Under the pieces are notes generated by a model. The model was given only the letters and a program-made list of their open reading frames with translations. It was not told the DNA's origin and made no database searches. From the NCBI GenBank assembly GCA_038058635.1, contig JBBUAP010000001.1:295877-359876 (forward strand): 64,000 nucleotides of DNA, in the 5' to 3' direction. The position numbers were made by a program, and so were the translations under genes. Below, piece by piece: positions 47,791-62,362 of this stretch; the stretch's first letter is position 1; each line of letters starts with the position of its first letter. The stretch comes from Patescibacteria group bacterium (GTDB lineage Bacteria > Patescibacteriota > UBA1384 > 2-12-FULL-50-11).

Positions 47791-48388
47791 TACCGGCCAC
47801 TTTGCAGAGCCGTTCATAGCTCTTCTCGTCATGCAAGAAGTGTGGGTTTGATTGGCCCTCCACAACGTCGTTTGAGATCCGGCCTTCCGGCCCGGATCGA
47901 GTCCCGCTGGTAATTTCGGCCTCACTTGCCGGTTGATAGGTCATACTCTCTACCAAGGCAAACCCGTTAGGCCGGATTACCCGAAACATTTCTCTCAGAG
48001 CTTGCCGCTGCTCGGTTCCTCCAAGCAACTCGCTGAAAGCCGACCACAGACATATTGCTGCGTCGAAAGAGTTCTCGCTGTATGGCAGTTGAGTCATCGA
48101 ACCCAAATCGAAAATGCTCGAGAGCTTTTCCTTGCGTACAGTTATCCTGGCCCGCTCGATTAGCTTCTTCGAGAGATCTATCCCAGTTACGTGATATCCG
48201 TCTTTAGCAAGGAGAATTGCAATCCGACCATAGCCGCAGCCTACGTCCAGCACGTCAGCATGGGGTGTCAGCATGGCTTTGATAATATTCGCCGTTGCCT
48301 TATCCCAGTCTGGACGACTCCGGGAAGCAAGTATGTCCGGTCCGATCGTGTTGTAGAAGTCTCTGTTGATCTGTTCGGAGTCCGCCAT
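47720..48388 (-). CDS. class I SAM-dependent methyltransferase (small-molecule type)
   Basis: Motif I VLDVGCGYGR. No DPPY/NPPW motif, so not a DNA methyltransferase. Confidence 0.7.
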   Translation of the reverse strand: MADSEQINRDFYNTIGPDILASRSRPDWDKATANIIKAMLTPHADVLDVGCGYGRIAILLAKDGYHVTGIDLSKKLIERARITVRKEKLSSIFDLGSMTQLPYSENSFDAAICLWSAFSELLGGTEQRQALREMFRVIRPNGFALVESMTYQPASEAEITSGTRSGPEGRISNDVVEGQSNPHFLHDEKSYERLCKVAGIKNWRVFCRDWAGRPRLILEFRK

Positions 48389-48438
48389 GGCAACAATCTA
48401 CCATAAAGGAAGTTCTTTATATATGTGTTCACTTTGGT

Positions 48439-48683
48439 GGGCTTGGCGGGAGCGCATTCGCACCCTGTTAGCAGGTTTGTCCGAAGACGACCGGCGTTTC
48501 GCGGATGCAACTCCTTTTGACAGCATCCCAGACTCTTCGAAGAATGGAGGAGTAGCATGAGCAAGCAGAGCGATCTTACTGCCTTCTACCAAACCATCTC
48601 CGAGATGGGCAGGCTGGAGATTGCCAGGAGGCGAGCCGAAGGGGAGACAATTGGTCCGGCACCACTGGGGTTTCGAAAGGTCG
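48439..48683 (+). repeat. direct repeat copy 2
   Basis: Pairs with 47283-47531. Confidence 0.8.
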
Positions 48684-48754
48684 TGGTGGTCGGCGCCCGA
48701 CACGTGGCCCAAGATTCCCCAACCGGTTGCTCCCCCGTTGCTCCCCACGGGTAA
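48557..48754 (+). pseudogene. second, shorter serine-recombinase fragment
   Basis: MSKQSDLTAFYQTISEMGRLEIARRRAEGETIGPAPLGFRKV is homologous to the N-terminus of the 47401 ORF, then it diverges and stops. Confidence 0.4.
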
Positions 48755-48804
48755 ATCGCAAAGCCCAATGAGACACTCCAAAAGCCGATTTTGAACCTAA
48801 AACC

Positions 48805-49092
48805 TGGAGCCGATGAGCGGATTTGAACCGCTGACCTGCTGTTTACAAACCACCGGCAAGCATGCCCGGCGGGGTAGGTCCTGGTTCCTCAGAGGTCCTT
48901 CGAGACCCCCAGATCATTGTTGGGAGTATTGCATCCAATATGTCAGGCGACACCGACAAACGAAACCGGACTGGCAGACGCCTCGGTCGTGAAGTCCAAG
49001 AATCTCAGAATCCAGTCGCCCCGATGAAAGACGGGGAGACACGGGCTGGGCCCCAAGCCCGAAGGGTCGATAATGGGAAACCTCGCATCGGC
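48805..49092 (-). ncRNA. candidate structured RNA with a tRNA-like 3' end (tmRNA-like, or a remnant of a tRNA/tmRNA integration target)
   Basis: Minus strand: canonical T-arm AGCGG-TTCAAAT-CCGCT, acceptor 3' strand CATCGGC, then T-CCA. The exact complement GCCGATG sits 281 nt upstream and is followed by a TCGAC motif. The roughly 390-nt region is GC-rich with no convincing ORF. Confidence 0.25.
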
Positions 49093-49189
49093 GAGGGCAG
49101 ACATCGGAAAGAACCAGGCCTCGAAGGGAGGACATCAATCCCACACGTAACGTTCGTCGAACACGACTCTAGCCTCCCGAGGGAGCGCT

Positions 49190-50413
49190 CTAGTCAGCCG
49201 GTCTAGCGCCCGTGAGCCCAAAGAGGATCGCACCCGGCCTGTCAGCCGCATCCAACCGCCGCGCAATCTCCAAAGCACCCCAAATGGCATAGGCGGACTC
49301 GGGAGCAGGGGCAATATGCTCACATTCTTCAAAGAGTGCGGCCGCACTCTTCGCTTCCCTGAGCGAGCACGTTAGGCTTGTTAGCCTACCCCTTGACGCG
49401 AGCTCAACGAGCAGAGGAGTCGTGACAGGATACGAGAGACCGGGCGCCCAAGTTTCTTCAGAACTCTTGATGCCCTTGGCATCCGGAAGGCAGGTTGTTA
49501 AACTCCGATATAGCGGACCTTGAGACCCAAACGTACGAACGGGTTTTATGTCGCGGTGTCCAAGTTTATGAGCGTGGTCCGGCTCCACCGCCACAAACTC
49601 GGGGGCCGCAACGTCTCCGCCAACGGGATGATCCAACAAGAAGGGCAGCACCATGCCTCCAAAATTGGTGCCGCCACCACAGCAGCCTACAATCGCATCG
49701 GGAACAACAGACATGCTTGCAAGCTGCTCCTTGGACTCCTGCCCGATTACACTATTAAAACCAACAACAGAATTCAGGAAACAGCCAACTGCGAATCTCG
49801 CCCTCCGCTCCACTAACAGATCCAGGCTTGGTCGGACTTCTGATGCCTCTATGACTCCACCCCATCTATGCACCTGCTCCAGCAACTGCTTGCGACTTGC
49901 CAACAGTGCTTGGGGGGCCATGATCGTGGCCCTGATGCCAAATTGGGCGCAAGCCCATGCTACCGCCACACCCCAATAACCGGAGAGTGTAAAGGCTATC
50001 AACTCCTGAATACCCTCTTGCTTCGCAAACCAGGCTTGCGCTAAGGCCGCGTTGGCCTTGTAGCTGTGCACGGGCGATGCGGTTTCGTCCTTGAACAGGA
50101 TCGTGCTTCGAATGCCAAGAGACCGGCACAGTGTCTTCGCTTCACGTAATGGCGTCGGCCGCCAATCAGCGAGCATTCTGTGCAGGTCGCCGGGAATCTG
50201 TCTTCGCTCCGACCCAACCTCAAGCTGCCAAGCTCCATCCACCAGGATCTTCGCGTGTTGCCCTGGGTCATATCGCTCCGTACACTCCCCGTCTATCCAA
50301 GGTCCCAACTTTAGAACTCCTGGCCACTCTCCAGGAACGCGCCAGCATATCGGAACCCCGATCGTCCGCGCTCGAGTGTCTAAGGGCGATCCACTGTTCA
50401 TTTTCACAAGCAT
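49190..50413 (-). CDS. TrpB2-type PLP-dependent tryptophan-synthase-beta-like enzyme
   Basis: PLP-lysine context LFKDETASPVHSYKANAA, a glycine-rich GCCGGGTNFGG loop and an N-terminal extension as in TrpB2. Confidence 0.65.
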   Translation of the reverse strand: MLVKMNSGSPLDTRARTIGVPICWRVPGEWPGVLKLGPWIDGECTERYDPGQHAKILVDGAWQLEVGSERRQIPGDLHRMLADWRPTPLREAKTLCRSLGIRSTILFKDETASPVHSYKANAALAQAWFAKQEGIQELIAFTLSGYWGVAVAWACAQFGIRATIMAPQALLASRKQLLEQVHRWGGVIEASEVRPSLDLLVERRARFAVGCFLNSVVGFNSVIGQESKEQLASMSVVPDAIVGCCGGGTNFGGMVLPFLLDHPVGGDVAAPEFVAVEPDHAHKLGHRDIKPVRTFGSQGPLYRSLTTCLPDAKGIKSSEETWAPGLSYPVTTPLLVELASRGRLTSLTCSLREAKSAAALFEECEHIAPAPESAYAIWGALEIARRLDAADRPGAILFGLTGARPAD

Positions 50414-50415
50414 AT

Positions 50416-51279
50416 CTACAAAAACTCTATTTGACCAGCATCACAAGATACTAAAGCAGGATGCCTCTTGGGAAGCGAAGTGAACCATTCTTCTAGTAAC
50501 CGCTCGAAATCCACCTTTTGCATCTTCGGTCCCCACAAACCGGCACCCCCGGAACTTAGCTCGTAGGCTCTTTTGTAAGTTTCCGCGGTAAGACGATCGA
50601 CTACGCTTTGAAGAGTTCCGGCTGCCCCACAATACGACTTCAATAAGGCAATCAAGACAACCTCAGCTTCGTTACGTCCCTCGCGCCATTTATCGAACAC
50701 GCCGACATAAAACGCAGCCCCTGCAGGATCAGGATCCCAATATTGCCATCCGACAGTCTCTTCTCTGGATCCAGAAGGCGGAGCACCAGCAATGAGCACT
50801 CTATCATCGCTGACTGAAAACCGAATAGGAAGATCCTGAATCGCCCAAAAGCGTATTTTTCCCGGGTTAGGTGCGTTTCGTACGTACATGAAATGCAAAC
50901 GCCAAAGGAGGTGCGGAAACATAGCGTCCAACGCAACCGGCCCGCAAAAGTCTGATTCCACACCATTGCGCAGGATTGCTGACATCGCTTCCTCCATCTC
51001 GCTTGAAACCCACCAAACCCGCGCTACCGATACTACGCGTTTCCTAGCGGAGACATATAACTCCATAGCTTGACGCAAGTAGAATCGCAGGCCCTGGAAC
51101 TGCTGAAACTCGGCGAGGAACTGCTTGTACTCTTTCCTGGCGACGCTCAAATCGTCCTTGACAAGTCTAATCTCCCTTAACACGGCGAGCATATCCACTC
51201 TTGCTCTCAAATACAACCACACCGTGAGCAGGAGGGATAGGATCGAGGAAAGTGACGCGATAATTACAAAGACTTCCAT
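50416..51279 (-). CDS. hypothetical protein with an N-terminal TM helix (GC-rich island cargo)
   Basis: The start is taken at MEVFVIIASL. The longer 51426 start would overlap the upstream permease gene. Confidence 0.4.
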   Translation of the reverse strand: MEVFVIIASLSSILSLLLTVWLYLRARVDMLAVLREIRLVKDDLSVARKEYKQFLAEFQQFQGLRFYLRQAMELYVSARKRVVSVARVWWVSSEMEEAMSAILRNGVESDFCGPVALDAMFPHLLWRLHFMYVRNAPNPGKIRFWAIQDLPIRFSVSDDRVLIAGAPPSGSREETVGWQYWDPDPAGAAFYVGVFDKWREGRNEAEVVLIALLKSYCGAAGTLQSVVDRLTAETYKRAYELSSGGAGLWGPKMQKVDFERLLEEWFTSLPKRHPALVSCDAGQIEFL

Positions 51280-51352
51280 AGCGTCCTCTTGCGAACAATA
51301 ATTGACATATCGACCCCTGAAATGGACATGATGGCGCTTGACCTGAACATCA

Positions 51353-52114
51353 TTACATGCCCTGCCAGTGAATGAAACGACGCTCGAGGAATGTGATAAT
51401 CCGGTTGAGCAGGAGCCCGATAACACCTATAACAACAATAGCTACCCACATATCGGGAACTCGATATGCGAAGCGCGAATCCTGGATGCGTTGGCCGAGA
51501 CCGCCGACTCCTCCGCCGAGCATCTCAGTAACGACAATCAGGACTAGTGAATTTGAAAGGGAAAGGCGTGCTGCGGAGAGCAGGGGCGACGACATCTCCC
51601 AGGCAATGACCTTGGTAAATACGATCCAGGGACCAGCGCCGAGTGTCTTAAGATAAGCCTCTCGCTGAGGTCGGCAAGCGCGCACCCCGTAGATAATATT
51701 GATGACGAAAATCATGGCACAGCCGAAGGCCGCTGCCGCGACCTGGGAACCACTCCCTATTCCTAGCCATAAGACAAAAGCTGGAAAAAGCGCTGAGACG
51801 GGTATGGAACGAGCAAAGTCGACCGGCAACTCAAATGCGTCAGACAGCCAGTTAATGCGACCCAATAGTAGGCCCAGGGGGACACCGATGCCAAATCCTA
51901 GGGCGAAGGCGAGCGCTGCCTTACCCAGAGTGCTTCCAGTATCCTCCCAAAAAGTCGAGGATCGCAAGTTTTCAATAAGCGCTTCCATCCATTCTACTGG
52001 AGCGGCAAGCACGTACGTTGCGTTAGGAAAGAGAATAGGAAGCAAGAGCCACAAGAAAAAGAGAATCAAAAGCCCGGCAATCCGAAGAGGCAAAGCCCGC
52101 AATCCAGTCCGCAA
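51353..52114 (-). CDS. ABC transporter permease (SsuC/TauC-type, binding-protein-dependent)
   Basis: EAA-loop region and 6 TM helices with SsuC-like layout. Confidence 0.7.
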   Translation of the reverse strand: MRTGLRALPLRIAGLLILFFLWLLLPILFPNATYVLAAPVEWMEALIENLRSSTFWEDTGSTLGKAALAFALGFGIGVPLGLLLGRINWLSDAFELPVDFARSIPVSALFPAFVLWLGIGSGSQVAAAAFGCAMIFVINIIYGVRACRPQREAYLKTLGAGPWIVFTKVIAWEMSSPLLSAARLSLSNSLVLIVVTEMLGGGVGGLGQRIQDSRFAYRVPDMWVAIVVIGVIGLLLNRIITFLERRFIHWQGM

Positions 52115-52508
52115 CTTTGCTGAGAGGGAGATCTACTTCTGAGGAGCTAAGAAGGTCCCGGACTTGACTCTCAGCCTCGGAGACTGGCACATGGCGGAGT
52201 TCCAGCGGAAGCCTCAAGTTGCCTAAATTCGAACGCCAAGGAAGGAGAGTTTGCCTATAATCCTGAAATAGATAGCCTACGCTGTCGCCGCTCAACGGGC
52301 TCCCAGCAAGCAAGACTTCTCCACTCTTCGGCTTGATGAGCCCCGCTACAGTGTTCAGGATCGTTGTCTTGCCTGACCCGTTCATTCCAAGCAGTACGCC
52401 AACGGACGACGCGGGCACGTTGAAGTTAATGTCGGCAACAACACTGCTACCGTTGCTGTAAGAAACCTCGAGGTTTGAAACCGTCAGGCTATCCAGAAGG
52501 GAGCTCAT
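52023..52508 (-). pseudogene. truncated ABC ATPase (SsuB/TauB-like)
   Basis: Walker A GMNGSGKTT and Q-loop YLFQD are present. The frame ends before the LSGGQ signature and Walker B, and it overlaps the permease gene by about 90 nt. Confidence 0.5.
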
Positions 52509-52605
52509 GGGGATTTACCCAGAACTAGCTGCTGAACGTCAATCGTACCTTTTAGCTCTCCGTTTAGACGGAGCAACTCTGCAAACTTGTTCACCAGAGT
52601 CGTGT

Positions 52606-52780
52606 CTATTCGTGCACCAATCCGGTAAGCTGCATGTCAGAACGAAGTTCGATTAGCTCCGCGTCCTTTGGAAGCTGAAGCTCTGGGCGAAGACCCAAGC
52701 GTGCGTATAGCCGCATTGTTGAGCCTGGAAATGTCCCGATTCGCTTTCCTTTGAGTTGTGCAACTCGTTGGATGTCGCCA
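52606..52780 (-). pseudogene. possible remnant of an SsuA-like substrate-binding protein
   Basis: Only the C-terminal roughly 55 aa of the 52606-53133 ORF (KGKRIGTFPGSTMRLYARLGLRPELQL) look binding-protein-like. The rest is antisense to the recombinase gene. Confidence 0.2.
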
Positions 52781-54445
52781 AGTCCACGATCAGCCATCTC
52801 ATCCGCGGGCTGGGCAATCCCATGTATATCACGGCTCGCCGCGTCGTCAAGTGTCTGGAGCATCACCTTGGTCGCAGACTCCACCCCGACGAGGTGTTCT
52901 CGCCCGATGGGATGTATCCCACGTCGTCGGTCTGCAGTCTCTGTGGCTGCCACGGCTGCCTGCCGGATTGCATTTTTAACGACGACGGCTCTTGACGTAG
53001 TCGCTGAACTGACCGAAGCGCACTCCGCCAAAGCGCCCGGGACACGTCCGGTCTTTGCTGACCTACTCGCCCGGATCGAGCGAGGCGAAGCCGAAGGGAT
53101 CGTCTGCTGGAGTATCAACCGACTGGCCCGCAATCCCGTCGATTCTGGTCAGTTGAGCTGGCTCTTGCAGCGAGGGGTGCTCAAGTCCATCCGAACCATC
53201 GATCGAGAATATCTGCCGGAAGACAATGTCCTGCTGATGGCGGTCGAATCAGGCGTTGCCAACCAATACATCCTCGATCTGCGCAAAGCCGTCATCCGCG
53301 GCATGGAAGGCAAAGCCGCCCGAGGCTGGATTCCCAATCGACCTCCCCAAGGGTACGGCGTCAATCCGCTGACCAAGGAGATCGATCCCATAGAGCCGCA
53401 GTTCCAACTTCTTCGACAGGCCTGGGACTTGCTTCTAACGGGCGCCTACACGGTGCCCCAGATACGATCAAGGCTACGAACCTGGGGCTACACCTATGGG
53501 AAGCCCGGCGCACCGGCTAAACCCCTGTTCACCGAATCCCACCTCTACCGAATCTTTGACAACCGCTTCTATTGTGGCACCTTCACCTTTCGCGGCCAGA
53601 CCTACCAAGGCCGGCACCGGCTGATGGTCAGCCCAGAGGAATTTGATCGGGCCCAGCGGATCTTGCACAAAGACAACCGCATCCAGCCCCAGAAGCGTGA
53701 ATTCCCTTTCACCGGCCTCATCCGTTGCGGGCGCTGCGGTTGCCTGGTGACCGCCGAACGCAAGATCAAACACTACAAAACGACCGCCCGAACCGCGGCC
53801 TATGAGTACTACCACTGCACCCACCGCAAGGGTGACTGCAAAGAGGTCAGCGTCACCGGCCCATACATCAACTCCACAATCGCCGGAAAGTTGGAGAGCG
53901 TCCTGATCGACCCGGAATTCGGCCAATGGCTTCTGAAGGCATTTGAGCGCGATTGGGACGAACAGCCTTCCGTTGACCCCAATTTGATCAAACAGCACCA
54001 AGAACACGTTCGTGCAACCGAACAGAAACTCGAACGATTGATCCAGCTTCGGCTGGCCCGGGAACTGGACGCCGAGGAGTTCAGCCGTATCAAAACCCAA
54101 ATTCAGGAAGAGCTGGCCGATGGCCGAAGACAGCTTGAGAGTTTGTCGAAGCGAGCCTCAACCGGGCGACGGGCTCTCATCAATGCCGTTCAGTTCAGCC
54201 TCAATGCTCCAAGGCATTTTGCCGCAAACGACATTCATCTGCAGAGATACGTCGCAACCAGGTTCGGCATTCGCTACGTTCTCACTCTGGGAAAGCTGGA
54301 AATCACACCGCATCCGCTGCTACCGAAATTGGCCGCGCTAGAACCTCCAAAATCGCCGCGCAATATGGTTGGAGCCGGGGCTTTGCGCCCCAACGCTCCC
54401 ATTGAGTGGTCCCAGCGGGAGTCGAACCCGCGATCTTCGCCATGA
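52751..54445 (+). CDS. large serine recombinase (resolvase/invertase-related integrase) with an atypical N-terminus
   Basis: Resolvase-domain C-terminal half (GIVCWSINRLARN), recombinase domain (RPPQGYG...) and zinc-ribbon cysteines (CGRCGC...HYHC). Its 3' end overlaps tRNA-Glu. A canonical Y-x-R-V-S catalytic motif was not found. Confidence 0.65.
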   Translation: MSCATRWMSPSPRSAISSAGWAIPCISRLAASSSVWSITLVADSTPTRCSRPMGCIPRRRSAVSVAATAACRIAFLTTTALDVVAELTEAHSAKAPGTRPVFADLLARIERGEAEGIVCWSINRLARNPVDSGQLSWLLQRGVLKSIRTIDREYLPEDNVLLMAVESGVANQYILDLRKAVIRGMEGKAARGWIPNRPPQGYGVNPLTKEIDPIEPQFQLLRQAWDLLLTGAYTVPQIRSRLRTWGYTYGKPGAPAKPLFTESHLYRIFDNRFYCGTFTFRGQTYQGRHRLMVSPEEFDRAQRILHKDNRIQPQKREFPFTGLIRCGRCGCLVTAERKIKHYKTTARTAAYEYYHCTHRKGDCKEVSVTGPYINSTIAGKLESVLIDPEFGQWLLKAFERDWDEQPSVDPNLIKQHQEHVRATEQKLERLIQLRLARELDAEEFSRIKTQIQEELADGRRQLESLSKRASTGRRALINAVQFSLNAPRHFAANDIHLQRYVATRFGIRYVLTLGKLEITPHPLLPKLAALEPPKSPRNMVGAGALRPNAPIEWSQRESNPRSSP

Positions 54446-54480
54446 AAAGGCGACGTCCTAGGCCACTAGACGATGGGACC
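54407..54480 (-). tRNA. tRNA-Glu (anticodon UUC)
   Basis: Minus strand: acceptor GGTCCCA/TGGGACC, anticodon stem TCGCC/GGCGA with loop TTTTCAT, T-arm GCGGG-TTCGACT-CCCGC. Discriminator A. Confidence 0.8.
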
Positions 54481-54684
54481 ATATTTTTGCCCTAATACTT
54501 AACTAACTTACAGGTTTTTGCCACGGTTGGCCTGCGGCCAAGTCCTAGGCCATTGTCGCCCCTCGTGAACTCGGGGCTCGCTTGTCGCTCTGCAGCTCCA
54601 AGTAGACGATGGGACCAATACGCCTATTTTACGAATTCTAATGAGTAAATCGAATTCGTACTCGAGTTCATTTTACCTTTAAAA

Positions 54685-55587
54685 ATGCCGAGAAACAACG
54701 ATTCGGGGTATGATAAGAGCATGAAAGGCGTGTTTCTATATCTAGTGGCTGGGTTGATGTTGGTTGGGGGCGGTTTGGTTTGGGTGGCATTATTTCATGG
54801 AATCCAGTCCTCTTCCGCCACGCCTCTTTTTGAACCTAAGAAAAACGAGGCGGTCTCAGAGCCATATTTACAGAACGACTCAACCGTTCCCTCGACCCCG
54901 TCGTCTGTCTATGTACCAATTTTGATGTATCACTACATTCGCGACTACCAAGATCGAACCGATGATCCGCTAGGAATTCAGCTCTCCGTTTCGCCTAAAA
55001 CATTTGACAAACAACTATCGAATTTGAAAGCAGCTGGCTATGAGACGATATCGCTTGAGGATTTTGCTGGCGGTAAATACAAACCCAAGTCAGTTGTTCT
55101 CACTTTTGACGATGGCTATGACGACCATTACACGAATGCTCTGCCAATCTTGGAAAAATATCAGGCCACCGCGACATTTTTTATCGTTTCGGGCTTTCTT
55201 GGACGAACTGGGTATATGACGACGCCTCAGGTTCAGCAATTAAGACTAGCGGGTATGGAAATTGGTGGCCATACGGTTACCCATCTGAATTTGGCTAACG
55301 CCCAGTACGAGAAGGCAATTGACGAGATTAGTAATAGCCTGATATCTCGCGATCCGGTTTTTGCCTACCCATCAGGGAAGTATAACCCCGTTACGCTTGA
55401 TATCGTTTCCGGTCTTGGCATCAAAGCAGCCGTCACCACTAATTTGGGGGTAGCAACCGAAAAAAGCAGCTTGTATGAATTGCCACGCATTCGGGTTAAG
55501 GAACATACCGATCTCTTGAAGCGGATTAATGAGGAAATAGCCATTGCGAAGCGTCAGCTCGCACCTTCCCAACGGAGCAAAGATTAG
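54685..55587 (+). CDS. polysaccharide deacetylase (NodB-homology domain), membrane-anchored
   Basis: NodB motifs LTFDDGYDDHYT and GGHTVTHLNL. N-terminal TM helix. Confidence 0.75.
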   Translation: MPRNNDSGYDKSMKGVFLYLVAGLMLVGGGLVWVALFHGIQSSSATPLFEPKKNEAVSEPYLQNDSTVPSTPSSVYVPILMYHYIRDYQDRTDDPLGIQLSVSPKTFDKQLSNLKAAGYETISLEDFAGGKYKPKSVVLTFDDGYDDHYTNALPILEKYQATATFFIVSGFLGRTGYMTTPQVQQLRLAGMEIGGHTVTHLNLANAQYEKAIDEISNSLISRDPVFAYPSGKYNPVTLDIVSGLGIKAAVTTNLGVATEKSSLYELPRIRVKEHTDLLKRINEEIAIAKRQLAPSQRSKD

Positions 55588-55681: not shown

Positions 55682-56290
55682 ATGAAAAATATTATATATC
55701 TTGCAGTTTTCGTTCTCGTGATCATCGGTATTTTTTCTTTCGTTCCGCAAAACAAACCAACAGACACCGCCACAAATACAACTAACCCTACAAAGGAGAC
55801 AACAACCATGACAGCAGATCCAACAACATTTGAAAAAGTCAGCGCTACCTCGGCCGTAATCAAAACCGCAAAAGGTGATATTGCCCTCGAGCTTTACCCG
55901 AACGATGCCCCAAAAACCGTGATGAATTTTGCGACACTTGCCAAGAACGGTTATTACGACAATCTGACTTTCCATCGTGTTGAGCCGGGTTTCGTTATTC
56001 AAGGTGGTGACCCGAGTGGCAACGGCAGTGGCGGTGTCTCGATATACGGCGCCAAATTTGAAGACGAGCTAAATCCCGTCACCGCTAGCTACAAAACCGG
56101 GTATCTAGAGGGTGTCCTAGCAATGGCCAACGCCGGGCCTAACACCAACGGCAGTCAGTTCTTTATAATGTTGGCCAACAATACTTCTCTGCCAAAAAAC
56201 TACACCATCTTCGGCAAAGTGACTTCTGGAATTGATATAGTCAAAAAAATCGCCATCGGCGAAACAATTATTACAATCGCAGTCAAATAA
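55682..56290 (+). CDS. cyclophilin-type peptidyl-prolyl isomerase with an N-terminal TM anchor
   Basis: Cyclophilin motifs [14 protein letters not shown] and [19 protein letters not shown]. The ATG lies 2 nt after the tRNA-Val. Confidence 0.75.
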
Positions 56291-56291
56291 C

Positions 56292-56561
56292 ATGACCCAT
56301 TCTCAGTTAACTGGTTGGTTGTCCCTAGGTGCTGGTCTAATCTCCTTTATTATCGGTGTAAGCGGGGGGATATTATTTCCCGATTTGGACTATTCCGGAT
56401 TTCCGAGCAGGGTTTGGCTTTATTCGGGGTTTATTGCAATAATTTCGGGCTTGATAGCTCTCTTCTCCTCTAGCCAAAAGCAAGAAAGAATTGTTGCTGT
56501 TTTTGGGATCGCATTGGGGATCCTCGGCTTACTAGTTATTTTATTTTCGATTGGGATATAA
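56292..56561 (+). CDS. small membrane protein (3 TM)
   Basis: 89 aa, hydrophobic. Confidence 0.35.
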   Translation: MTHSQLTGWLSLGAGLISFIIGVSGGILFPDLDYSGFPSRVWLYSGFIAIISGLIALFSSSQKQERIVAVFGIALGILGLLVILFSIGI

Positions 56562-56607
56562 TTAAAAAGCGATACTAAATGCTTTTCTGTTTGACGATTT
56601 CAAGCGG

Positions 56608-57213
56608 CTACTTCTTCACTTCAATCTTTTTAATTTTTGGTTTGACTGGTTCCACCTTTGGGGCGGTGATTTTTAGCGTACCGTCGGCGAGTTTGGCTTC
56701 GACTCGATCGACATTGATCGGGTGGGCAAAACGCACTTGACGAGCGAAAGAGCCGTACTCCCATTCGCGACGGATGAGTTTTTTGGCGACATCGTGCCTG
56801 TCGACAGCGCTCTGGGCGCTAATTGTCAGCGTGTCACCCGAAAACTCAAGATTGAGCTCATGTTCCTTGAATCCTGGCGCCTGAACTTGAATCTCGTACT
56901 CTGCTTCATTTTCGTAGACATTAATCGCTCCGGCTAGTAAGCTGGCATCTGGCGATTCAATCATCTGGACAGGCACTTCAGCAACTGAGGGCAATTGGGC
57001 CACATTCTGGCTGAGGCCCTCAACAAGTTCCTCTAAGTCACAGTTGAAAAACTGAATCATATTAATAAGAAGGGGAAAGCTTGGCAAGTAAGCGCCCTGC
57101 TCGAGCGAGATGATAGACTGACGAGAAATACCTAGCTGACGAGCTAGTTCATCCTGGCTTAGCTCTTGTGCTTGGCGCAGATCCCTTAAAAGCAATCGTA
57201 ATTCCGTGGACAT
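56608..57213 (-). CDS. HTH_XRE DNA-binding domain fused to an alpha-crystallin (small heat-shock protein) domain
   Basis: N-terminal LSQDELARQLGISRQSIISLEQG is a Cro/C1-type HTH. The C-terminal 110 aa form an alpha-crystallin fold (EYEIQVQAPGFKEHELNLEFSGDTLTISAQ...VEAKLADGTLKITAPK). Confidence 0.65.
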   Translation of the reverse strand: MSTELRLLLRDLRQAQELSQDELARQLGISRQSIISLEQGAYLPSFPLLINMIQFFNCDLEELVEGLSQNVAQLPSVAEVPVQMIESPDASLLAGAINVYENEAEYEIQVQAPGFKEHELNLEFSGDTLTISAQSAVDRHDVAKKLIRREWEYGSFARQVRFAHPINVDRVEAKLADGTLKITAPKVEPVKPKIKKIEVKK

Positions 57214-57262
57214 TTACCCATAATGTAAAGGAAACTTTACATTGGGTCAAGATGTAATTTAT

Positions 57263-58465
57263 CTACTCGTATTTGAGGGCTTCAACTGGGTTTTTGCGAG
57301 CGGCACGAAGGGCGGGCAAGAGCCCGAAAACTACACCAGCGACGACACCCATGCCAACGGCCATCATGATTGTCGAACTGGTAATGGCTGGTTCGAGCGG
57401 CGAGAACTTGGCTGCCAGATACGAGGTCAAGGCAGCTAATCCTATCCCGATGAGTGCCCCGATAACGGTGAGGAGAATAGACTCAATTAAGAATTGAGTC
57501 AGAATTGCTCCTTCGGTAGCGCCAACGGCTTTACGAATACCGATCTCACGGGTTCGCTCGGCGACGGTGACAAGCATAATATTCATGATACCGATGCCGC
57601 CGACCAGTAGTGAGATCGAAGTGATGCCAATCACCATATATTTCAATACATTGATAATCTGATCGACCGTTTTCAAGATATCGGACGGCTTCATGACCGT
57701 AAAATCCATCGTGCCGTGTTTGGCGGTCAGCGCGTCTTTTACTTCGGTGATGGCTTTGTCGATATCTTCAACCGTCTTGGAGTGGACGACAATGCGATTA
57801 ACTTGAGGGGATTTATTAATCTCATTAGCGACCGGCGCGGGAATAAGGAACATTTCTCCCTGGGCAGAGCTGATACTTAGCGACTGCCCGACTTTGAATA
57901 AGCCGATGACTTCGAAATGATCAACGCCAATACTCATCGTTTCACCGACCTTGACCGCCAGTTTGTCTGCGGCTGATTCGCTTAAGACGACGACTCGATT
58001 CTTCAGATCGAGATCCGACTGTTCGAAGTTGCGGCCGGTGACAATATTGATACCGAATAGTTCTTCTGCGCCCGGGGTAATTCCGACGGGCATACCGGTT
58101 AGCTTTTTATCGCCGTGAGTGGCGAGCCCACCGATGAAAACCGCGTAATCAACTGTGCTGTCGATTAGCTCGGTATGAGTTTTGAGGTAGTCGATATCGT
58201 CAACAAGAAGAGTCGATGGTGCTGCCTGGGCGGCAAAATTTGGTGTGCCAGATGAATCGGATTCTCCGGGCATCACAATGATTGTCCGAGGGCCAAAATC
58301 CTCAACAAAGCCACCGATTTGGTTCTGGACTCCCTGGGCGGCGGCCAACAAAGTGACGACGGCGTAAACGCCGATGACGATTCCTAGTAAAGTCAGAAAA
58401 CTGCGCAGGCGATTATTCCAAAGAGATTTCAAGGCGGTTCTAAAATTCTCGAAAATATTCATCAC
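57263..58465 (-). CDS. ABC exporter permease (MacB/FtsX-like)
   Basis: MacB-type layout: TM1, large periplasmic domain, then three C-terminal TM helices. 400 aa. Confidence 0.75.
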   Translation of the reverse strand: MMNIFENFRTALKSLWNNRLRSFLTLLGIVIGVYAVVTLLAAAQGVQNQIGGFVEDFGPRTIIVMPGESDSSGTPNFAAQAAPSTLLVDDIDYLKTHTELIDSTVDYAVFIGGLATHGDKKLTGMPVGITPGAEELFGINIVTGRNFEQSDLDLKNRVVVLSESAADKLAVKVGETMSIGVDHFEVIGLFKVGQSLSISSAQGEMFLIPAPVANEINKSPQVNRIVVHSKTVEDIDKAITEVKDALTAKHGTMDFTVMKPSDILKTVDQIINVLKYMVIGITSISLLVGGIGIMNIMLVTVAERTREIGIRKAVGATEGAILTQFLIESILLTVIGALIGIGLAALTSYLAAKFSPLEPAITSSTIMMAVGMGVVAGVVFGLLPALRAARKNPVEALKYE

Positions 58466-59136
58466 CTCTTTCCCACTAGCTTGTCGCTAACTATTTTGCC
58501 GTCACGCATCGTGATAATTCGAGTGGCATATTCGAGTAAATCGGGGTTGTGGGTGACCATGACGACGGTCGTTCCTTGGGCGTTAATGCTTTTGAATAGA
58601 TCCATTATTTCGCTGCCAGTTTTGGAGTCCAAGTTTCCGGTCGGCTCATCAGCTAGGATTATTTCCGGCTCGGTCACGAGCGCTCGGGCGATCGCGACTC
58701 GTTGCTGTTGGCCGCCGCTCATTTGATTGGGCCAGTTGCGGCGCTTGTTCCATACTCCAACTTGCTCGAGGGCGTGCTGGACCTTGGTGGCGGCGCCTCG
58801 TGTCTGGCCATATAATAGTGGTAGCAAGACATTATCAAAAGATGTTGTCCGACTGATTAAATTAAACGACTGAAAGACAAACCCAAATTTTTTGTTTCGC
58901 AATCCGGCTCTTTGGCGACTAGAAAACTTGTCAACGCGAGTGCCGTCAATACAATATTCGCCCTCGTCGGTGGAGTCGAGTAAGCCAAGTGTATAGAGTA
59001 GGGTCGACTTGCCGCAGCCGCTCGGGCCGATGATGCCAACAAACTCACCCTTGGCGATTTTAAGTGTTACGCCGTCCAAAGCATTCACAACTTCTCCGGC
59101 GGTAAATTGTTTCCGGGCATTAACTAATTTCAACAT
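58462..59136 (-). CDS. ABC exporter ATPase (MacB/LolD-like)
   Basis: Walker A GPSGCGKST, LSGGQQQRVAIARAL and Walker B ILADEPTGNLD. The start is taken at MLKLVNARK. Confidence 0.8.
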   Translation of the reverse strand: MLKLVNARKQFTAGEVVNALDGVTLKIAKGEFVGIIGPSGCGKSTLLYTLGLLDSTDEGEYCIDGTRVDKFSSRQRAGLRNKKFGFVFQSFNLISRTTSFDNVLLPLLYGQTRGAATKVQHALEQVGVWNKRRNWPNQMSGGQQQRVAIARALVTEPEIILADEPTGNLDSKTGSEIMDLFKSINAQGTTVVMVTHNPDLLEYATRIITMRDGKIVSDKLVGKR

Positions 59137-59593
59137 CAATATCAGGTTACCTTGTCTTACAATTATTGCCAAGAAGTGATAAAATCGCTTGGTGGAAACA
59201 GCATCTCTACTTATTTTTCGTTCTTTCACTTTCGAGTTGTTACAAGTCCCCAGTCCTACGGAGAGTCTTCAAATCGGAAGATTGCTTCTAGGCATCGTTC
59301 AGGAGGACGGATTCGAGGAGTTTGTCGGAAGGAATCACTTGTTCTTAACTCGGTCAGTTTGCAACGACTCTGAGGCGATGACGATTGTAATGAGAGGAAT
59401 CGCCAAAAGGCTGTTTGTGACTATCTACGCCACAGACGCCGCTAGACTAGCCGAAATGGAAGGTATCATTTCGGAAAGACTCGATGGAGTCGCAAAGCGA
59501 TGTGAGTCACGTGGTTAACGGCCGCCTTCGGGCGGCCAATTCTTTACTCATATTGATTGACTTTTCCCCTGTTTAATGCTAGTGTATTCGCAT

Positions 59594-59982
59594 GGGGCTG
59601 TAATGGCTTCGACGGGAACTTTAACAACCAAATTTGCAAGCGGAGAGTACCTGCCTTAGAGTACAAAAAAATACGTGCAAACGTTATGAGCAAAGTCAAA
59701 GCTACTGTAGCAAACGCGTTTGGTAGCTTCGTCGCTCAACCAGTATTCGCCTAAACTCGAATACCGTTTCTCTGTTTGATCTCTACTGAAACAGAGACGC
59801 GTCATAATCGTAGGGTAGTAATTGGGTTTTCATCGGCCCTTTCACAAGATTAAGATGATGCTGTTGCTGGGTGTTTCGTCTGTTTTTAGCCCAATGACCT
59901 AAGAAAAGTAAGCAGTCTAAGCTTGTAGTAGATTTGGTTCGTTTGTTTTCGGACGCGGGTTCGACTCCCGCCAGCTCCACCA
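59594..59982 (+). ncRNA. ssrA: tmRNA (ssrA)
   Basis: 5' end GGGGCTGTAATGGCTTCGACGGG and 3' end GGACGCGGGTTCGACTCCCGCCAGCTCCACCA, both near-identical to canonical tmRNA termini. The internal tag frame GCA AAC GCG ... GCC TAA would read ANAFGSFVAQPVFA. Confidence 0.85.
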
Positions 59983-59990
59983 CGAAAATT

Positions 59991-60012
59991 CCACCTTAAC
60001 GGGTGGTTTTTT
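59991..60012 (+). terminator. Rho-independent terminator after ssrA
   Basis: CCACC-TTAACG-GGTGG hairpin followed by TTTTTT. Confidence 0.5.
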
Positions 60013-60019
60013 CGTATAT

Positions 60020-60673
60020 ATGGTGCTCGTGGTTGAGTTTATGAAGAATTTGTCGTACAATCGCCGTGTAAAACTTCTCTGCTTCAAAGCAGAACAGGAG
60101 GGGAAGTTGCAGCAACTTATATTACCGAAATTGTTGGTTCTGGATCGGAATATAATCCAGCCACTCTTCTTCACTGCCGGGCCAATCAAAGGCGGCGGCA
60201 ACTGGCAAGAAAAAGCCTGGGACTACCTGGCGAATCAGCTAAACGAGATGGCAGCCGCCATTCCGAGGCGCTGGAAAAGCGATCATCGTCTGTTTGCACA
60301 TCGGGCCACCGGCCAGGAGGATGCATTCGACAGACAGACTCTCTGGGAGCGTCACTACATGCAACGTGCATCTAGGTGGGGCTGCCTAGTGTTCTGGCTG
60401 CCTTGCGAGAGCAAAACAGAGCCACGAACTGACGGCCAGCCTTATGCACGAGACACGTACGGGGAGCTGGGGGCTTGGCGGTCCAGACTGGGCGACAGTA
60501 CCTTCGATAAGGTCGTCATCGGTGCCGAACCGGACTTTCCAGGCCTAAGCGTGATCACCTGCAACATAAATGAGGATCTTGGACGCGAGTTCCCGATCTA
60601 CTCAACGCTCGAAGAGACGCTCGATCAAGCGATCTTGCTGGCTCAGGTAACGTCCGCATTCGAGCCCGGCTAG
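60020..60673 (+). CDS. hypothetical protein, GC-rich relative to its surroundings (Rossmann-like; possible nucleoside 2-deoxyribosyltransferase-like fold)
   Basis: 217 aa. An FFTAGPIKGGGNW motif resembles the N-terminus of N-deoxyribosyltransferase/DUF4062-like proteins. Lies immediately downstream of ssrA. Confidence 0.35.
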   Translation: MVLVVEFMKNLSYNRRVKLLCFKAEQEGKLQQLILPKLLVLDRNIIQPLFFTAGPIKGGGNWQEKAWDYLANQLNEMAAAIPRRWKSDHRLFAHRATGQEDAFDRQTLWERHYMQRASRWGCLVFWLPCESKTEPRTDGQPYARDTYGELGAWRSRLGDSTFDKVVIGAEPDFPGLSVITCNINEDLGREFPIYSTLEETLDQAILLAQVTSAFEPG

Positions 60674-60726: not shown

Positions 60727-61008
60727 ATGGGTATAAAAAAAGACAAACAAAAAATATTGATTGGGCTTAAAAAAGCAGAGAGTTTACTTAAGAAAATTAC
60801 CTCAATGGTAGAAGCAGACCAATACTGCGTCGATATAATGCAGCAGAACCTGGCCGTGATTGGCTTACTAAAGTCCGTCCATCAGCAAGTGATGCAGGAC
60901 CATCTCCACACTTGTTTTACCGAAGGTGTTGAGTCTGGTTCTAAGGGCAAGCAAAAGAAAATGATCGAAGAAATTATCAAAGTCAGCCGGTTGGCTAACA
61001 AGTCTTAA
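60727..61008 (+). CDS. CsoR/RcnR/FrmR-family metal-sensing transcriptional repressor
   Basis: 93 aa with the family's Cys-His-His-Cys ligand positions (YCVD...H...H..C). Confidence 0.7.
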   Translation: MGIKKDKQKILIGLKKAESLLKKITSMVEADQYCVDIMQQNLAVIGLLKSVHQQVMQDHLHTCFTEGVESGSKGKQKKMIEEIIKVSRLANKS

Positions 61009-61016
61009 GGAGGGAA

Positions 61017-61505
61017 ATGACCAAATTCGTTTTATCGGTGATTGCGTTTAGCATCGCGGCAATTTTGGCTATTTATTTTATTGGGTCTAAAAACACGAAA
61101 GAGAATACTACGAGTATCGAGAGTCCCGTCGGTACCTACGAACTTTCGAGCGAAAAGATGGACCTAGGCGAAATGACAGTCGACGTTAAAAAAACTGCTA
61201 ATTTTACTTTCAAAAATACGAGTAGCGAAAAGATGAATTTGAGTAAGTTTGAAACTAGCTGTAACTGCACGATGACCGAAGTAAAAATCAACGGCGATAC
61301 TTCGCCGATGTTCAATATGCCGGCCCATATGTCGAGTGCCGAAAAGGCCTGGAATCGCGATCTAGCTCCAGGCGAAACAGCCGAGATAAATGTTACTTAC
61401 GAACCGGCCTTAATGCCGGTCTACGGCCCGATCGAACGTTACTCAACTTTTAAAATTAATAATTTCAAGGAAATTCGACTAACCGTGGCGGCTACCGTCA
61501 AGTGA
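61017..61505 (+). CDS. membrane-anchored hypothetical protein with a CxC motif (DUF1573-like)
   Basis: N-terminal TM helix, a beta-rich domain and an SCNCT motif. Sits inside a metal-handling cluster. Confidence 0.4.
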   Translation: MTKFVLSVIAFSIAAILAIYFIGSKNTKENTTSIESPVGTYELSSEKMDLGEMTVDVKKTANFTFKNTSSEKMNLSKFETSCNCTMTEVKINGDTSPMFNMPAHMSSAEKAWNRDLAPGETAEINVTYEPALMPVYGPIERYSTFKINNFKEIRLTVAATVK

Positions 61506-62362
61506 TGTCGGGGACGATTTTCTGGAGCGCTAGTATCGTTGTCGGATTCATTTCTGGTGCGATCGCCTTGTTTGCGCCGTGTTGCTTAACGGTGTTGCTA
61601 CCAACCTATCTAGCCCAGATTGTCCAAACCCGGGTAAGGGTCTTACTCTCAACGCTCGTTTTCTCGCTCGGCATCGCTGCGGTCATGTTACCGATCGCGC
61701 TCGGATTTCGAGAGCTGATCAACATCTTCAACGATTATCATCCGTACTTTTACGGCATTGGTGGGTTGGTAATGATTCTAATGGGAATCCTGCTGATATT
61801 TCAGTTTAAACTACCGATGTTTGTTAAGCCGACCCAGTTGCAAGGCCGAGCCACCTTCGGATCGCTCTTTTTGCTCGGCGTCACTTCTGGTTTGGCGACG
61901 GCCTGTTGCGCCCCGGTATTAGTTGGGGTCATTGCCCTGACCGCCCTTAGTCCCAGTACTTTCCTAGCTCTACTTGTCGGCACTAGCTATGTCGCTGGTA
62001 TGGTTCTGCCGTTGTTACTGGGAGCATTGCTAATGAGTGGGAGCGGACTAATGAAAATACGAACCTGGCTCAACAAACCGCTTGGCCCGACTACAACTGG
62101 TAGCTTGTTGGCCGGCTTGGTCATGATTGGCTACGGATTATTCCTCGGCATTAGCGTTTTGGCGGGGCGGTTAATCAATTCCGGCGAAATTGACCCAGTC
62201 GCCATTCGGGCAATGACAATAGGGCGCAACATCAGCAAATTCTTGAATGAAAATCCTGTCTTTGCCATTCTTGCCTTGATTGTAATGGCTGGGATAGTAG
62301 TAATTGTCGTCAAACGATTGAGAAAAGAACTAGAATCAAATAAGGGAGGAAAAAATGAGTAA
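61502..62362 (+). CDS. CcdA/DsbD-family thiol-disulfide transporter membrane protein
   Basis: Two Cys pairs inside TM helices (APCCLTV and TACCAPV) and about 6-8 TM helices. Confidence 0.65.
   Translation: MMSGTIFWSASIVVGFISGAIALFAPCCLTVLLPTYLAQIVQTRVRVLLSTLVFSLGIAAVMLPIALGFRELINIFNDYHPYFYGIGGLVMILMGILLIFQFKLPMFVKPTQLQGRATFGSLFLLGVTSGLATACCAPVLVGVIALTALSPSTFLALLVGTSYVAGMVLPLLLGALLMSGSGLMKIRTWLNKPLGPTTTGSLLAGLVMIGYGLFLGISVLAGRLINSGEIDPVAIRAMTIGRNISKFLNENPVFAILALIVMAGIVVIVVKRLRKELESNKGGKNE

Follow-up and report, generated by a model that had tools for sequence, protein, structure and literature searches.

A small heat-shock protein joined to a CylR2-like DNA-binding domain: a candidate heat-shock repressor in Patescibacteria

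The question raised by this locus is what a DNA-binding domain is doing on a small heat-shock protein (sHSP). In a stretch of 64,000 nucleotides (nt) from an uncultivated groundwater bacterium of the Patescibacteria group (contig JBBUAP010000001.1, positions 295,877 to 359,876), which in its full length is referred to here as the window, the gene at 56608..57213 (-) encodes a protein of 201 amino acids (aa). The original prediction, made from the sequence alone, was that this is a Cro/C1-type helix-turn-helix (HTH) joined to an alpha-crystallin domain (ACD), that it is the last gene of a MacB-like ATP-binding cassette (ABC) exporter operon, and that it might be a stress-linked transcription factor or a chaperone tethered to DNA. 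The analysis presented here indicates that in Berkelbacteria-like Patescibacteria the fusion protein probably represses a heat-shock regulon, its own gene included, and that titration of the sHSP by unfolded proteins would relieve the repression, a reading to which a probability of about 0.6 is given.

The fusion gene is a single open reading frame (ORF), without frameshift or internal stop, and both halves of its product are recognised well above the Pfam cut-offs, HTH_3 at residues 9-63 (49.3 bits against a cut-off of 23) and HSP20 (PF00011) at residues 100-200 (63.5 bits against 20.8). These are the only Pfam families matched, and the two-domain composition that had been proposed is therefore borne out. 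An identical protein is encoded by 9 contigs of several samples, among them a contig from well H43 of the Hainich aquifer that matches the window exactly, and this, together with the intact ORF, rules out an assembly artefact, whether a frameshift or two separate genes read as one.

The HTH (57025..57189 (-)) is of the XRE/Cro-C1 type and is CylR2-like, its residues 9-64 aligning with residues 6-61 of 66 in the CylR2 structure 2xiu (E 2.6e-7), with further matches to 1utx and to the 65 aa regulator 9k3w. CylR2, the cytolysin repressor of Enterococcus faecalis, binds its promoter as a homodimer (PMC3709268, PMC3042103), so that the HTH of the fusion belongs to a family whose way of working is already established. 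In the AlphaFold model (predicted local distance difference test, pLDDT, 77.5) a five-helix HTH and a beta-sandwich, both confidently predicted, are separated by a disordered linker. The five helices are at a pLDDT of about 90, and the flexible linker, placed by alignment at about residues 66-96 (56926..57018 (-)), is below 50 at residues 70-91. The beta-sandwich, which is the ACD with its C-terminal extension (residues 100-200; 56614..56916 (-)), superposes in Foldseek on solved sHSPs with TM-scores up to 0.86 and a root-mean-square deviation of about 1.8-2.6 A, and this part of the protein matches Schizosaccharomyces pombe Hsp16 as well as wheat Hsp16.9, with I197-E-V199 pairing with I-Q-I of the latter in the alignment. 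Family-wide, S30-R31-Q32 in the predicted recognition helix is invariant or nearly so, as are the sHSP hallmarks R158, G178-x-L180, and I197-x-V199, with I197 and V199 conserved at 90% or more among 60 family members. The retention of all of these hallmarks would suggest that selection maintains this half of the fusion as an sHSP and that it probably dimerises and oligomerises like one.

What the HTH might bind is indicated by the 49 nt between the stop codon of the upstream permease gene, on the same strand, and the ATG of the fusion gene (57211-57213). This gap reads TTGACC-caa-TGTAAAG-tttc-CTTTACA-TT-atgggtaa-ATG, and there appears to be a near-consensus promoter within it that belongs to the fusion gene itself, with a -35 of TTGACC (57245..57250 (-)), a spacer of 17 nt, and a -10 of TACATT (57222..57227 (-)), which are called by promoter scan and by conservation, of TTGAC in the case of the -35. 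Inside this promoter is a perfect palindrome, TGTAAAG-N4-CTTTACA (57224..57241), which extends to ATGTAAAG-gaaa-CTTTACAT at 57223-57242 and is a candidate operator. Its left arm fills the spacer after the -35 and its right arm overlaps the -10, so that a protein bound here would block RNA polymerase. Given the near-consensus promoter, the optimal 17 nt spacer, and the position of the palindrome over spacer and -10, the predicted geometry fits a repressor that occludes the promoter and not an activator. No second copy of the palindrome, even with up to 3 mismatches, is found in the 64 kb of the window. The -10 ends only 8 nt ahead of the ATG and there is no Shine-Dalgarno sequence, which would mean that the fusion mRNA is probably leaderless or nearly so.

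The arrangement is not confined to the window. Eight independent fusion loci were retrieved by protein identity (40-83% identical), and in all eight the module TTGAC-N3-5-TGTAAAG-nTTn-CTTTACA is present 5' of the fusion gene, regardless of what the neighbouring genes are, with the palindromic operator between the -35 and -10 of the fusion's own promoter, from which autoregulation is predicted. Allowing for up to 2 mismatches, the 233 kb of DNA from these related loci contain no other operator site. Across sites the half-site is invariant and the 4 nt centre varies, the one natural variant of the half-site being TGTCAAG at locus L139.

The same module is found 5' of heat-shock genes. In an exact-match scan of one genome per species, from which, as from the metagenome scan, counts are samples and not totals, the Patescibacteria matches without a fusion gene include one directly before clpP in a Berkelbacteria genome (L038) and one directly before dnaK in each of two genomes (L041, L124). 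A metagenome census was made with a pattern anchored on the -35, the identities of representative genes being confirmed by Pfam. Among the 120 modules listed, the downstream gene is dnaK in at least 16 cases, grpE in at least 5 (4 of them then followed by dnaK), groES in at least 8, clpP in at least 1, and an HTH-sHSP fusion in at least 13, including a divergent subfamily of 240-263 aa, with the listed modules also including about 40 DUF2178/XRE-type pairs and at least 11 Streptococcus parB sites. All of the fusion and heat-shock loci keep a TTGAC that precedes the operator by 3-5 nt, and TTGACA-17 nt-TACA(A/T)T with the operator inside it describes 28 fusion and 33 heat-shock promoters. Where heat-shock sites carry a taxonomic label, it is that of Berkelbacteria or Patescibacteria, groups with many fusions.

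A test that does not depend on the operator pattern is to retrieve ClpP orthologues by protein identity, and for each of the three obtained the operator is found 26-28 nt before the start codon. In the case of P0192 (L134), the module is perfect and lies 480 kb from a fusion gene, P0072 (L008), on the same contig of 803,959 bp (Ga0131077_10000003). It is also perfect for P0204, on a BroJett034 contig that carries an operator-dnaK arrangement as well, the fusion not being located there, and it has one mismatch for P0162, which comes from the same samples and sequencing run as the window. P0162 is not taken as proof of the regulon in the window's organism, since its GC content differs and no claim is made that the genome is the same; likewise, L038 and the fusion P0036 were considered as a possible pairing of operator-clpP and fusion on one contig and prove to be on different contigs. 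The presence of the candidate operator in the fusion's own promoter and at clpP, dnaK, grpE, and groES of related genomes favours the earlier idea that a DNA-binding sHSP could be a stress-linked transcription factor.

The classical alternative to such a regulator was also sought. There is no CIRCE sequence (TTAGCACTC-N9-GAGTGCTAA) at up to 3 mismatches in 1.86 Mb that includes all of the operator-linked dnaK, groES, and grpE loci, and the fusion protein contains no HrcA domain. Neither the 241 kb around 36 heat-shock operator sites nor the 64 kb window contains a stand-alone CylR2-like HTH gene or a DUF2178 gene. Two other observations were made on the targets of the module. Before a glutamate dehydrogenase gene (ELFV_dehydrog; L242:49-1400) it has the only clearly metabolic target among the modules listed, and it is present 29 nt 5' of parB in L016, L036, L047, L151, L152, and more than 20 other loci of the Streptococcus mitis/oralis group, with no CylR2-like HTH gene detected nearby.

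The palindrome itself is found in many phyla among the matches listed in the species scan, and in 32 of the 80 loci listed there is a homologous HTH gene near the operator, 3 of these being fusions and 29 stand-alone XRE genes, which rules out chance as the explanation of the matches in unrelated phyla. The stand-alone proteins are 51-81 aa long, most of them 64-73 aa, and have the signature VSRQTIxxxExGxYxPS; in 17 of the 29 genes the operator ends 4-20 nt before the start codon. On the strength of this co-occurrence, this HTH and this operator would form a widespread cognate pair. There is also a widespread two-gene module in which the operator is followed by a gene for a DUF2178 small membrane protein and then by one for a CylR2-like XRE of 65-80 aa (L157-L262, e.g. 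L174, L198, and L212; L265:1178-1701). In the metagenome scan a DUF2178 gene typically precedes the stand-alone XRE gene; DUF2178 is present in at least 26 stand-alone modules and at cylR1-cylR2, where the layout of palindrome, cylR1, and cylR2 on the Enterococcus faecalis plasmid mirrors that of the DUF2178-XRE modules. The palindrome of the cyl promoter, TTTTGTCAAGTG-T-CACTTGACAAAA, which we take to be the mapped CylR2 site, has the half-site TGTCAAG, one base different from TGTAAAG.

The fusion HTH is therefore homologous over nearly the whole of CylR2, and the stand-alone relatives share its operator and promoter layout, but there are differences. CylR2 is partnered by the membrane protein CylR1/DUF2178, whereas the fusion has no such partner, its HTH being covalently joined to an sHSP, and in none of the fusion loci is the operator separated from the fusion gene by a DUF2178 gene or another gene for a small membrane protein. 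The half-sites are 5 nt apart in the cyl palindrome and 4 nt apart in the fusion operator, and the recognition helix has SRQS in the fusions where the stand-alone proteins have SRQT. The targets of the CylR2-type regulators are a toxin operon or a DUF2178 gene, while those predicted for the fusion are heat-shock genes.

How widespread the fusion is depends on the breadth of the search. More than 110 close clusters have the two-domain HTH-sHSP architecture, and with a wider profile at least 648 clusters (90% identity) share it at E<=1e-20, both domains being present in every one listed and the labels of the listed fusion clusters being only Berkelbacteria, Patescibacteria, or "bacterium". Among 1.84 billion representatives at 50% identity, scanned exhaustively, there are 62 fusions at E<=1e-30, and overall about 60-90 such clusters. 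The architecture, which had been called uncommon, is so overall but is common inside this lineage. The database label of the fusion protein is merely "Hsp20 family protein". In the same exhaustive profile search, four proteins with 8-14 tandem copies of an HTH of this type were seen: P0295 (1002 aa), P0296 (883 aa), P0309 (703 aa), and P0429 (1148 aa).

The longer fusions, of 225-263 aa, consist of the HTH, a variable linker, and a full sHSP that runs from a conserved Met and includes the N-terminal motif W.PFQAID.M.DEM..FGR.DW. Stand-alone sHSPs of 147-149 aa, which are 47-54% identical to the window protein, start precisely at this Met, and the fusion would have originated when a complete sHSP acquired a CylR2-type XRE DNA-binding domain at its N-terminus. 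Compared with the 233 aa fusions and the stand-alone sHSPs, the clade to which the window protein belongs (201-207 aa) has a deletion of about 30 aa that includes the sHSP N-terminal motif, a loss that the alignment indicates is secondary.

From these observations we infer that the fusion protein binds the operator and that its binding represses. As a dimer, the HTH would bind TGTAAAG-N4-CTTTACA inside strong sigma-70-type promoters and so block RNA polymerase at the fusion gene, clpP, dnaK, grpE-dnaK, and groES, with the ACD dimer and the I-x-V motif supplying oligomerisation and stress sensing. Unfolded proteins would draw the sHSP moiety into client complexes, or would alter its oligomeric state, and the repressor would leave its operators, inducing the chaperone, protease, and fusion genes until DnaK and ClpP had cleared the clients and repression returned. 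That the sHSP domain may be the stress sensor, working by titration, is suggested by analogy with IbpA of Escherichia coli, which represses its own translation and that of rpoH until it is recruited to aggregates and is thus a precedent for an sHSP as an aggregation sensor by titration (PMC10410725).

Several points weigh against this reading. Co-occurrence and the homology to regulators of the CylR2 type are what links the protein to the operator, and the same operator is widely found with stand-alone CylR2-like XRE proteins, other classes of the Candidate Phyla Radiation (CPR; L050, L058, L114) among them, so that a separate regulator may exist in the same genomes. In only one case are the fusion and a heat-shock operator on the same contig, and the heat-shock contigs from the metagenomes carry no taxonomic label. 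There is no heat-shock gene, either chaperone or protease, in the 64 kb window, the ORFs considered as candidates being a histidine kinase, SecA, a penicillin-binding protein, a CHAP-domain protein, MreB, and others, so that for the window's own organism the regulon is a prediction from related genomes; and P0162, the clpP from the same samples, has a GC content of 0.44 against 0.47-0.50 for the window as well as a mismatch in its operator. Finally, the approximately 30 aa lost from the window clade usually aid client binding, which weakens the step of titration by clients for the window protein.

This last point bears most directly on an explanation in which the protein senses heat itself, a shift in the oligomer-dimer equilibrium of the sHSP or a loosening of the ACD dimer lowering the avidity of the paired HTHs with no need for clients. 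Several heat-shock repressors are intrinsic thermosensors, and the HrcA of Campylobacter jejuni is reportedly one. The regulon and operator evidence is the same for such a sensor, and the window clade, in losing the N-terminal client-binding motif yet keeping the ACD and I-x-V, fits a sensor that needs oligomerisation and not clients, which leaves thermosensing open for the window protein. Most family members, though, retain the full sHSP N-terminal region, which would suggest that client binding matters, and CylR2-type HTH domains dimerise by themselves (PMC3042103), so dissociation of the ACD need not abolish binding; direct thermosensing is on balance unlikely, without being negligible. It is also conceivable that the HTH does no more than limit the synthesis of its own chaperone, the heat-shock genes being under the control of another, stand-alone CylR2-like XRE with the same specificity, in whose regulon the fusion gene would be one target among others. 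The regulator at the heat-shock sites is known by inference only, and stand-alone XRE proteins of 64-81 aa with an identical operator are widespread, CPR included. The surroundings of the heat-shock sites, and the window, have been seen above to hold no gene for such a protein, however, and the labelled sites belong to the groups in which the fusion is common. In addition, the stand-alone regulators are tied to DUF2178 genes, and at L261, the sole locus with both a DUF2178-XRE pair and groES, groES has no operator. A division of labour of this kind is distinctly improbable.

Much less can be said for explanations that make the palindrome something other than an operator, or the protein something other than a heat-shock regulator. 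A read-through transcript would fold the palindrome and its flanks around the fusion AUG (57190-57265 (-); -15.3 kcal/mol, z = -2.0), as would be expected of a hairpin, attenuator, or RNA thermometer, but the palindrome is between the -35 and -10 and hence upstream of the predicted transcription start, its distance to the start codon varies from 8 to more than 400 nt, and no Rfam family matches the region. Its half-site is invariant and its centre variable, and the TGTCAAG of L139 loses complementarity without a compensating change, all of which makes an RNA element hardly credible. The idea that the HTH places a holdase on the nucleoid to protect DNA-bound proteins, with no regulation involved, has nothing in its favour beyond the domain combination, and a sequence-specific palindrome located in core promoters, those of the heat-shock genes as well as that of the fusion gene, is what marks a regulator; tethering, which had been suggested as an alternative, accordingly finds no support and is scarcely to be entertained. 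There remains the view that the fusion belongs to a MacB-like ABC exporter operon, either as its last gene or as its regulator, which might, for instance, control the transporter in response to envelope or secretion stress. The co-directional pair just upstream is as described, with a MacB_PCD/FtsX-type permease (57263..58465 (-)) identified by Pfam and an ABC ATPase (58462..59136 (-); Pfam ABC_tran, 115 bits), for which ATG 59136 is the probable start, the longest ORF extending to 59229 and the NCBIfam alignments beginning at residue 32 of that long ORF. The order ATPase, permease, fusion gene recurs in relatives that are 44-83% identical, with permease-fusion gaps of 49-190 nt, and no terminator is found in the 49 nt gap of the window. 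Yet the fusion gene has its own -35, -10, and operator in that gap, there is no operator upstream of the ABC genes, and the adjacency is broken by a HicAB pair in L004 and by an opposite-strand gene in L008 and is absent from L007, L012, and the P0036 locus, which have no ABC genes nearby, with the promoter-operator module kept throughout. A peptidyl-prolyl isomerase (PPIase) gene and a polysaccharide deacetylase gene are equally syntenic with the fusion, which indicates general conservation of gene order. That the neighbours vary while the module stays speaks for a gene that is transcribed independently and regulates itself, and against a member of the ABC operon, and the assignment to the exporter operon is very improbable.

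The PPIase, which is of the cyclophilin type with an N-terminal membrane anchor (55682-56290), and the polysaccharide deacetylase (54685-55587) adjoin the fusion gene family-wide, even where there are no ABC genes, which may reflect either conserved gene order or a functional tie to protein folding in the envelope. HicA/HicB toxin-antitoxin genes are seen beside genes of the proposed regulon, between permease and fusion gene in L004 (3090-3536) and flanking clpP in L139 (2343-2609 and 3647-4080).

Elsewhere in the window, the region 48000-54500 has a GC content of 0.53-0.56 against about 0.48 and contains a gene for a large serine recombinase (52751-54445 (+); Resolvase, Recombinase, and Zn_ribbon_recom), the 3' end of which overlaps a tRNA-Glu gene (54406-54480 (-)) and which is adjoined by a truncated ABC ATPase ORF (52023-52508). 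This looks like a mobile element integrated at a tRNA gene. In L001 a similar recombinase precedes the ABC pair. The opposite strand of the window carries, just upstream of the ABC genes, the transfer-messenger RNA (tmRNA) gene (59594-59982 (+); Rfam, 151.7 bits), for which ARAGORN gives the tag peptide ANVMSKVKATVANAFGSFVAQPVFA, and an Rfam scan of 56000-60200 finds nothing besides this. At 60727-62362 (+), a gene for a CsoR-like metal-sensing repressor (Trns_repr_metal, 60727-61008) precedes genes for a DUF1573 protein and for a multi-pass membrane protein, and the group may be a small unit for metal resistance.

The logic predicted for the fusion is that of HrcA/CIRCE, HspR/HAIR, CtsR, and RheA, in which an inverted repeat is found in the promoters of dnaK, grpE, groES, clpP, and the regulator itself, with repression relieved by proteotoxic stress. 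None of HrcA, HspR, CtsR, and RheA has any sequence relationship to the fusion, however, and the operator differs. Feedback by a chaperone is part of the HrcA-GroEL and HspR-DnaK models, and RheA is the repressor of an sHSP gene, hsp18, in Streptomyces; in all of these classical systems repressor and chaperone are two different proteins, while the fusion has a chaperone domain in the repressor chain itself. From the side of the sHSPs, wheat Hsp16.9, S. pombe Hsp16, and Methanocaldococcus jannaschii Hsp16.5 share with the fusion the ACD fold, the conserved Arg, G-x-L, and the C-terminal I-x-I/V, but canonical sHSPs have no N-terminal HTH, and the N-terminal region of the window clade is shorter by about 30 aa. 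IbpA, as an aggregation sensor that controls its own synthesis and the wider heat-shock response by titration, is what the sHSP half of the fusion would resemble, but it acts post-transcriptionally on the 5' untranslated regions of the ibpA, ibpB, and rpoH mRNAs and has no dedicated nucleic-acid-binding domain (PMC10410725), in contrast to the fusion, which has a DNA-binding domain and is predicted to act at promoters. Full-text searches of the literature turned up nothing on HTH-sHSP fusions, this operator, DUF2178, or the regulation of heat shock in Patescibacteria. What would be new is thus the fusion family, the operator, the joining of chaperone and repressor, and the lineage, while heat-shock repression with chaperone feedback is already known.

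To our knowledge, almost nothing is known of the regulation of transcription in the uncultivated, genome-reduced CPR/Patescibacteria. Against this background the finding offers a concrete regulator, operator, promoter layout, and set of targets, which are testable with one 23 kDa protein and short DNA, and the operator motif permits heat-shock genes and promoters to be annotated automatically in such genomes. It also shows how a generic CylR2-type cassette of HTH and operator can be recruited by gene fusion into a new stress regulon. If the sHSP domain is the sensor, this would be the most compact form of "chaperone titration", compared with sigma-32, HspR, HrcA, and IbpA, having sensor and effector in one chain, and would be a natural design for a biosensor of protein misfolding. 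In its fullest form, which is put forward tentatively and at somewhat less than even odds, the proposal is that throughout this lineage of ultra-small Patescibacteria a single polypeptide may be both the sensor of proteotoxic stress, its sHSP moiety gauging the load of unfolded protein directly, and the master heat-shock repressor of dnaK, grpE, groES/EL, clpP, and its own gene, acting through a new operator in place of HrcA/CIRCE or sigma-32.

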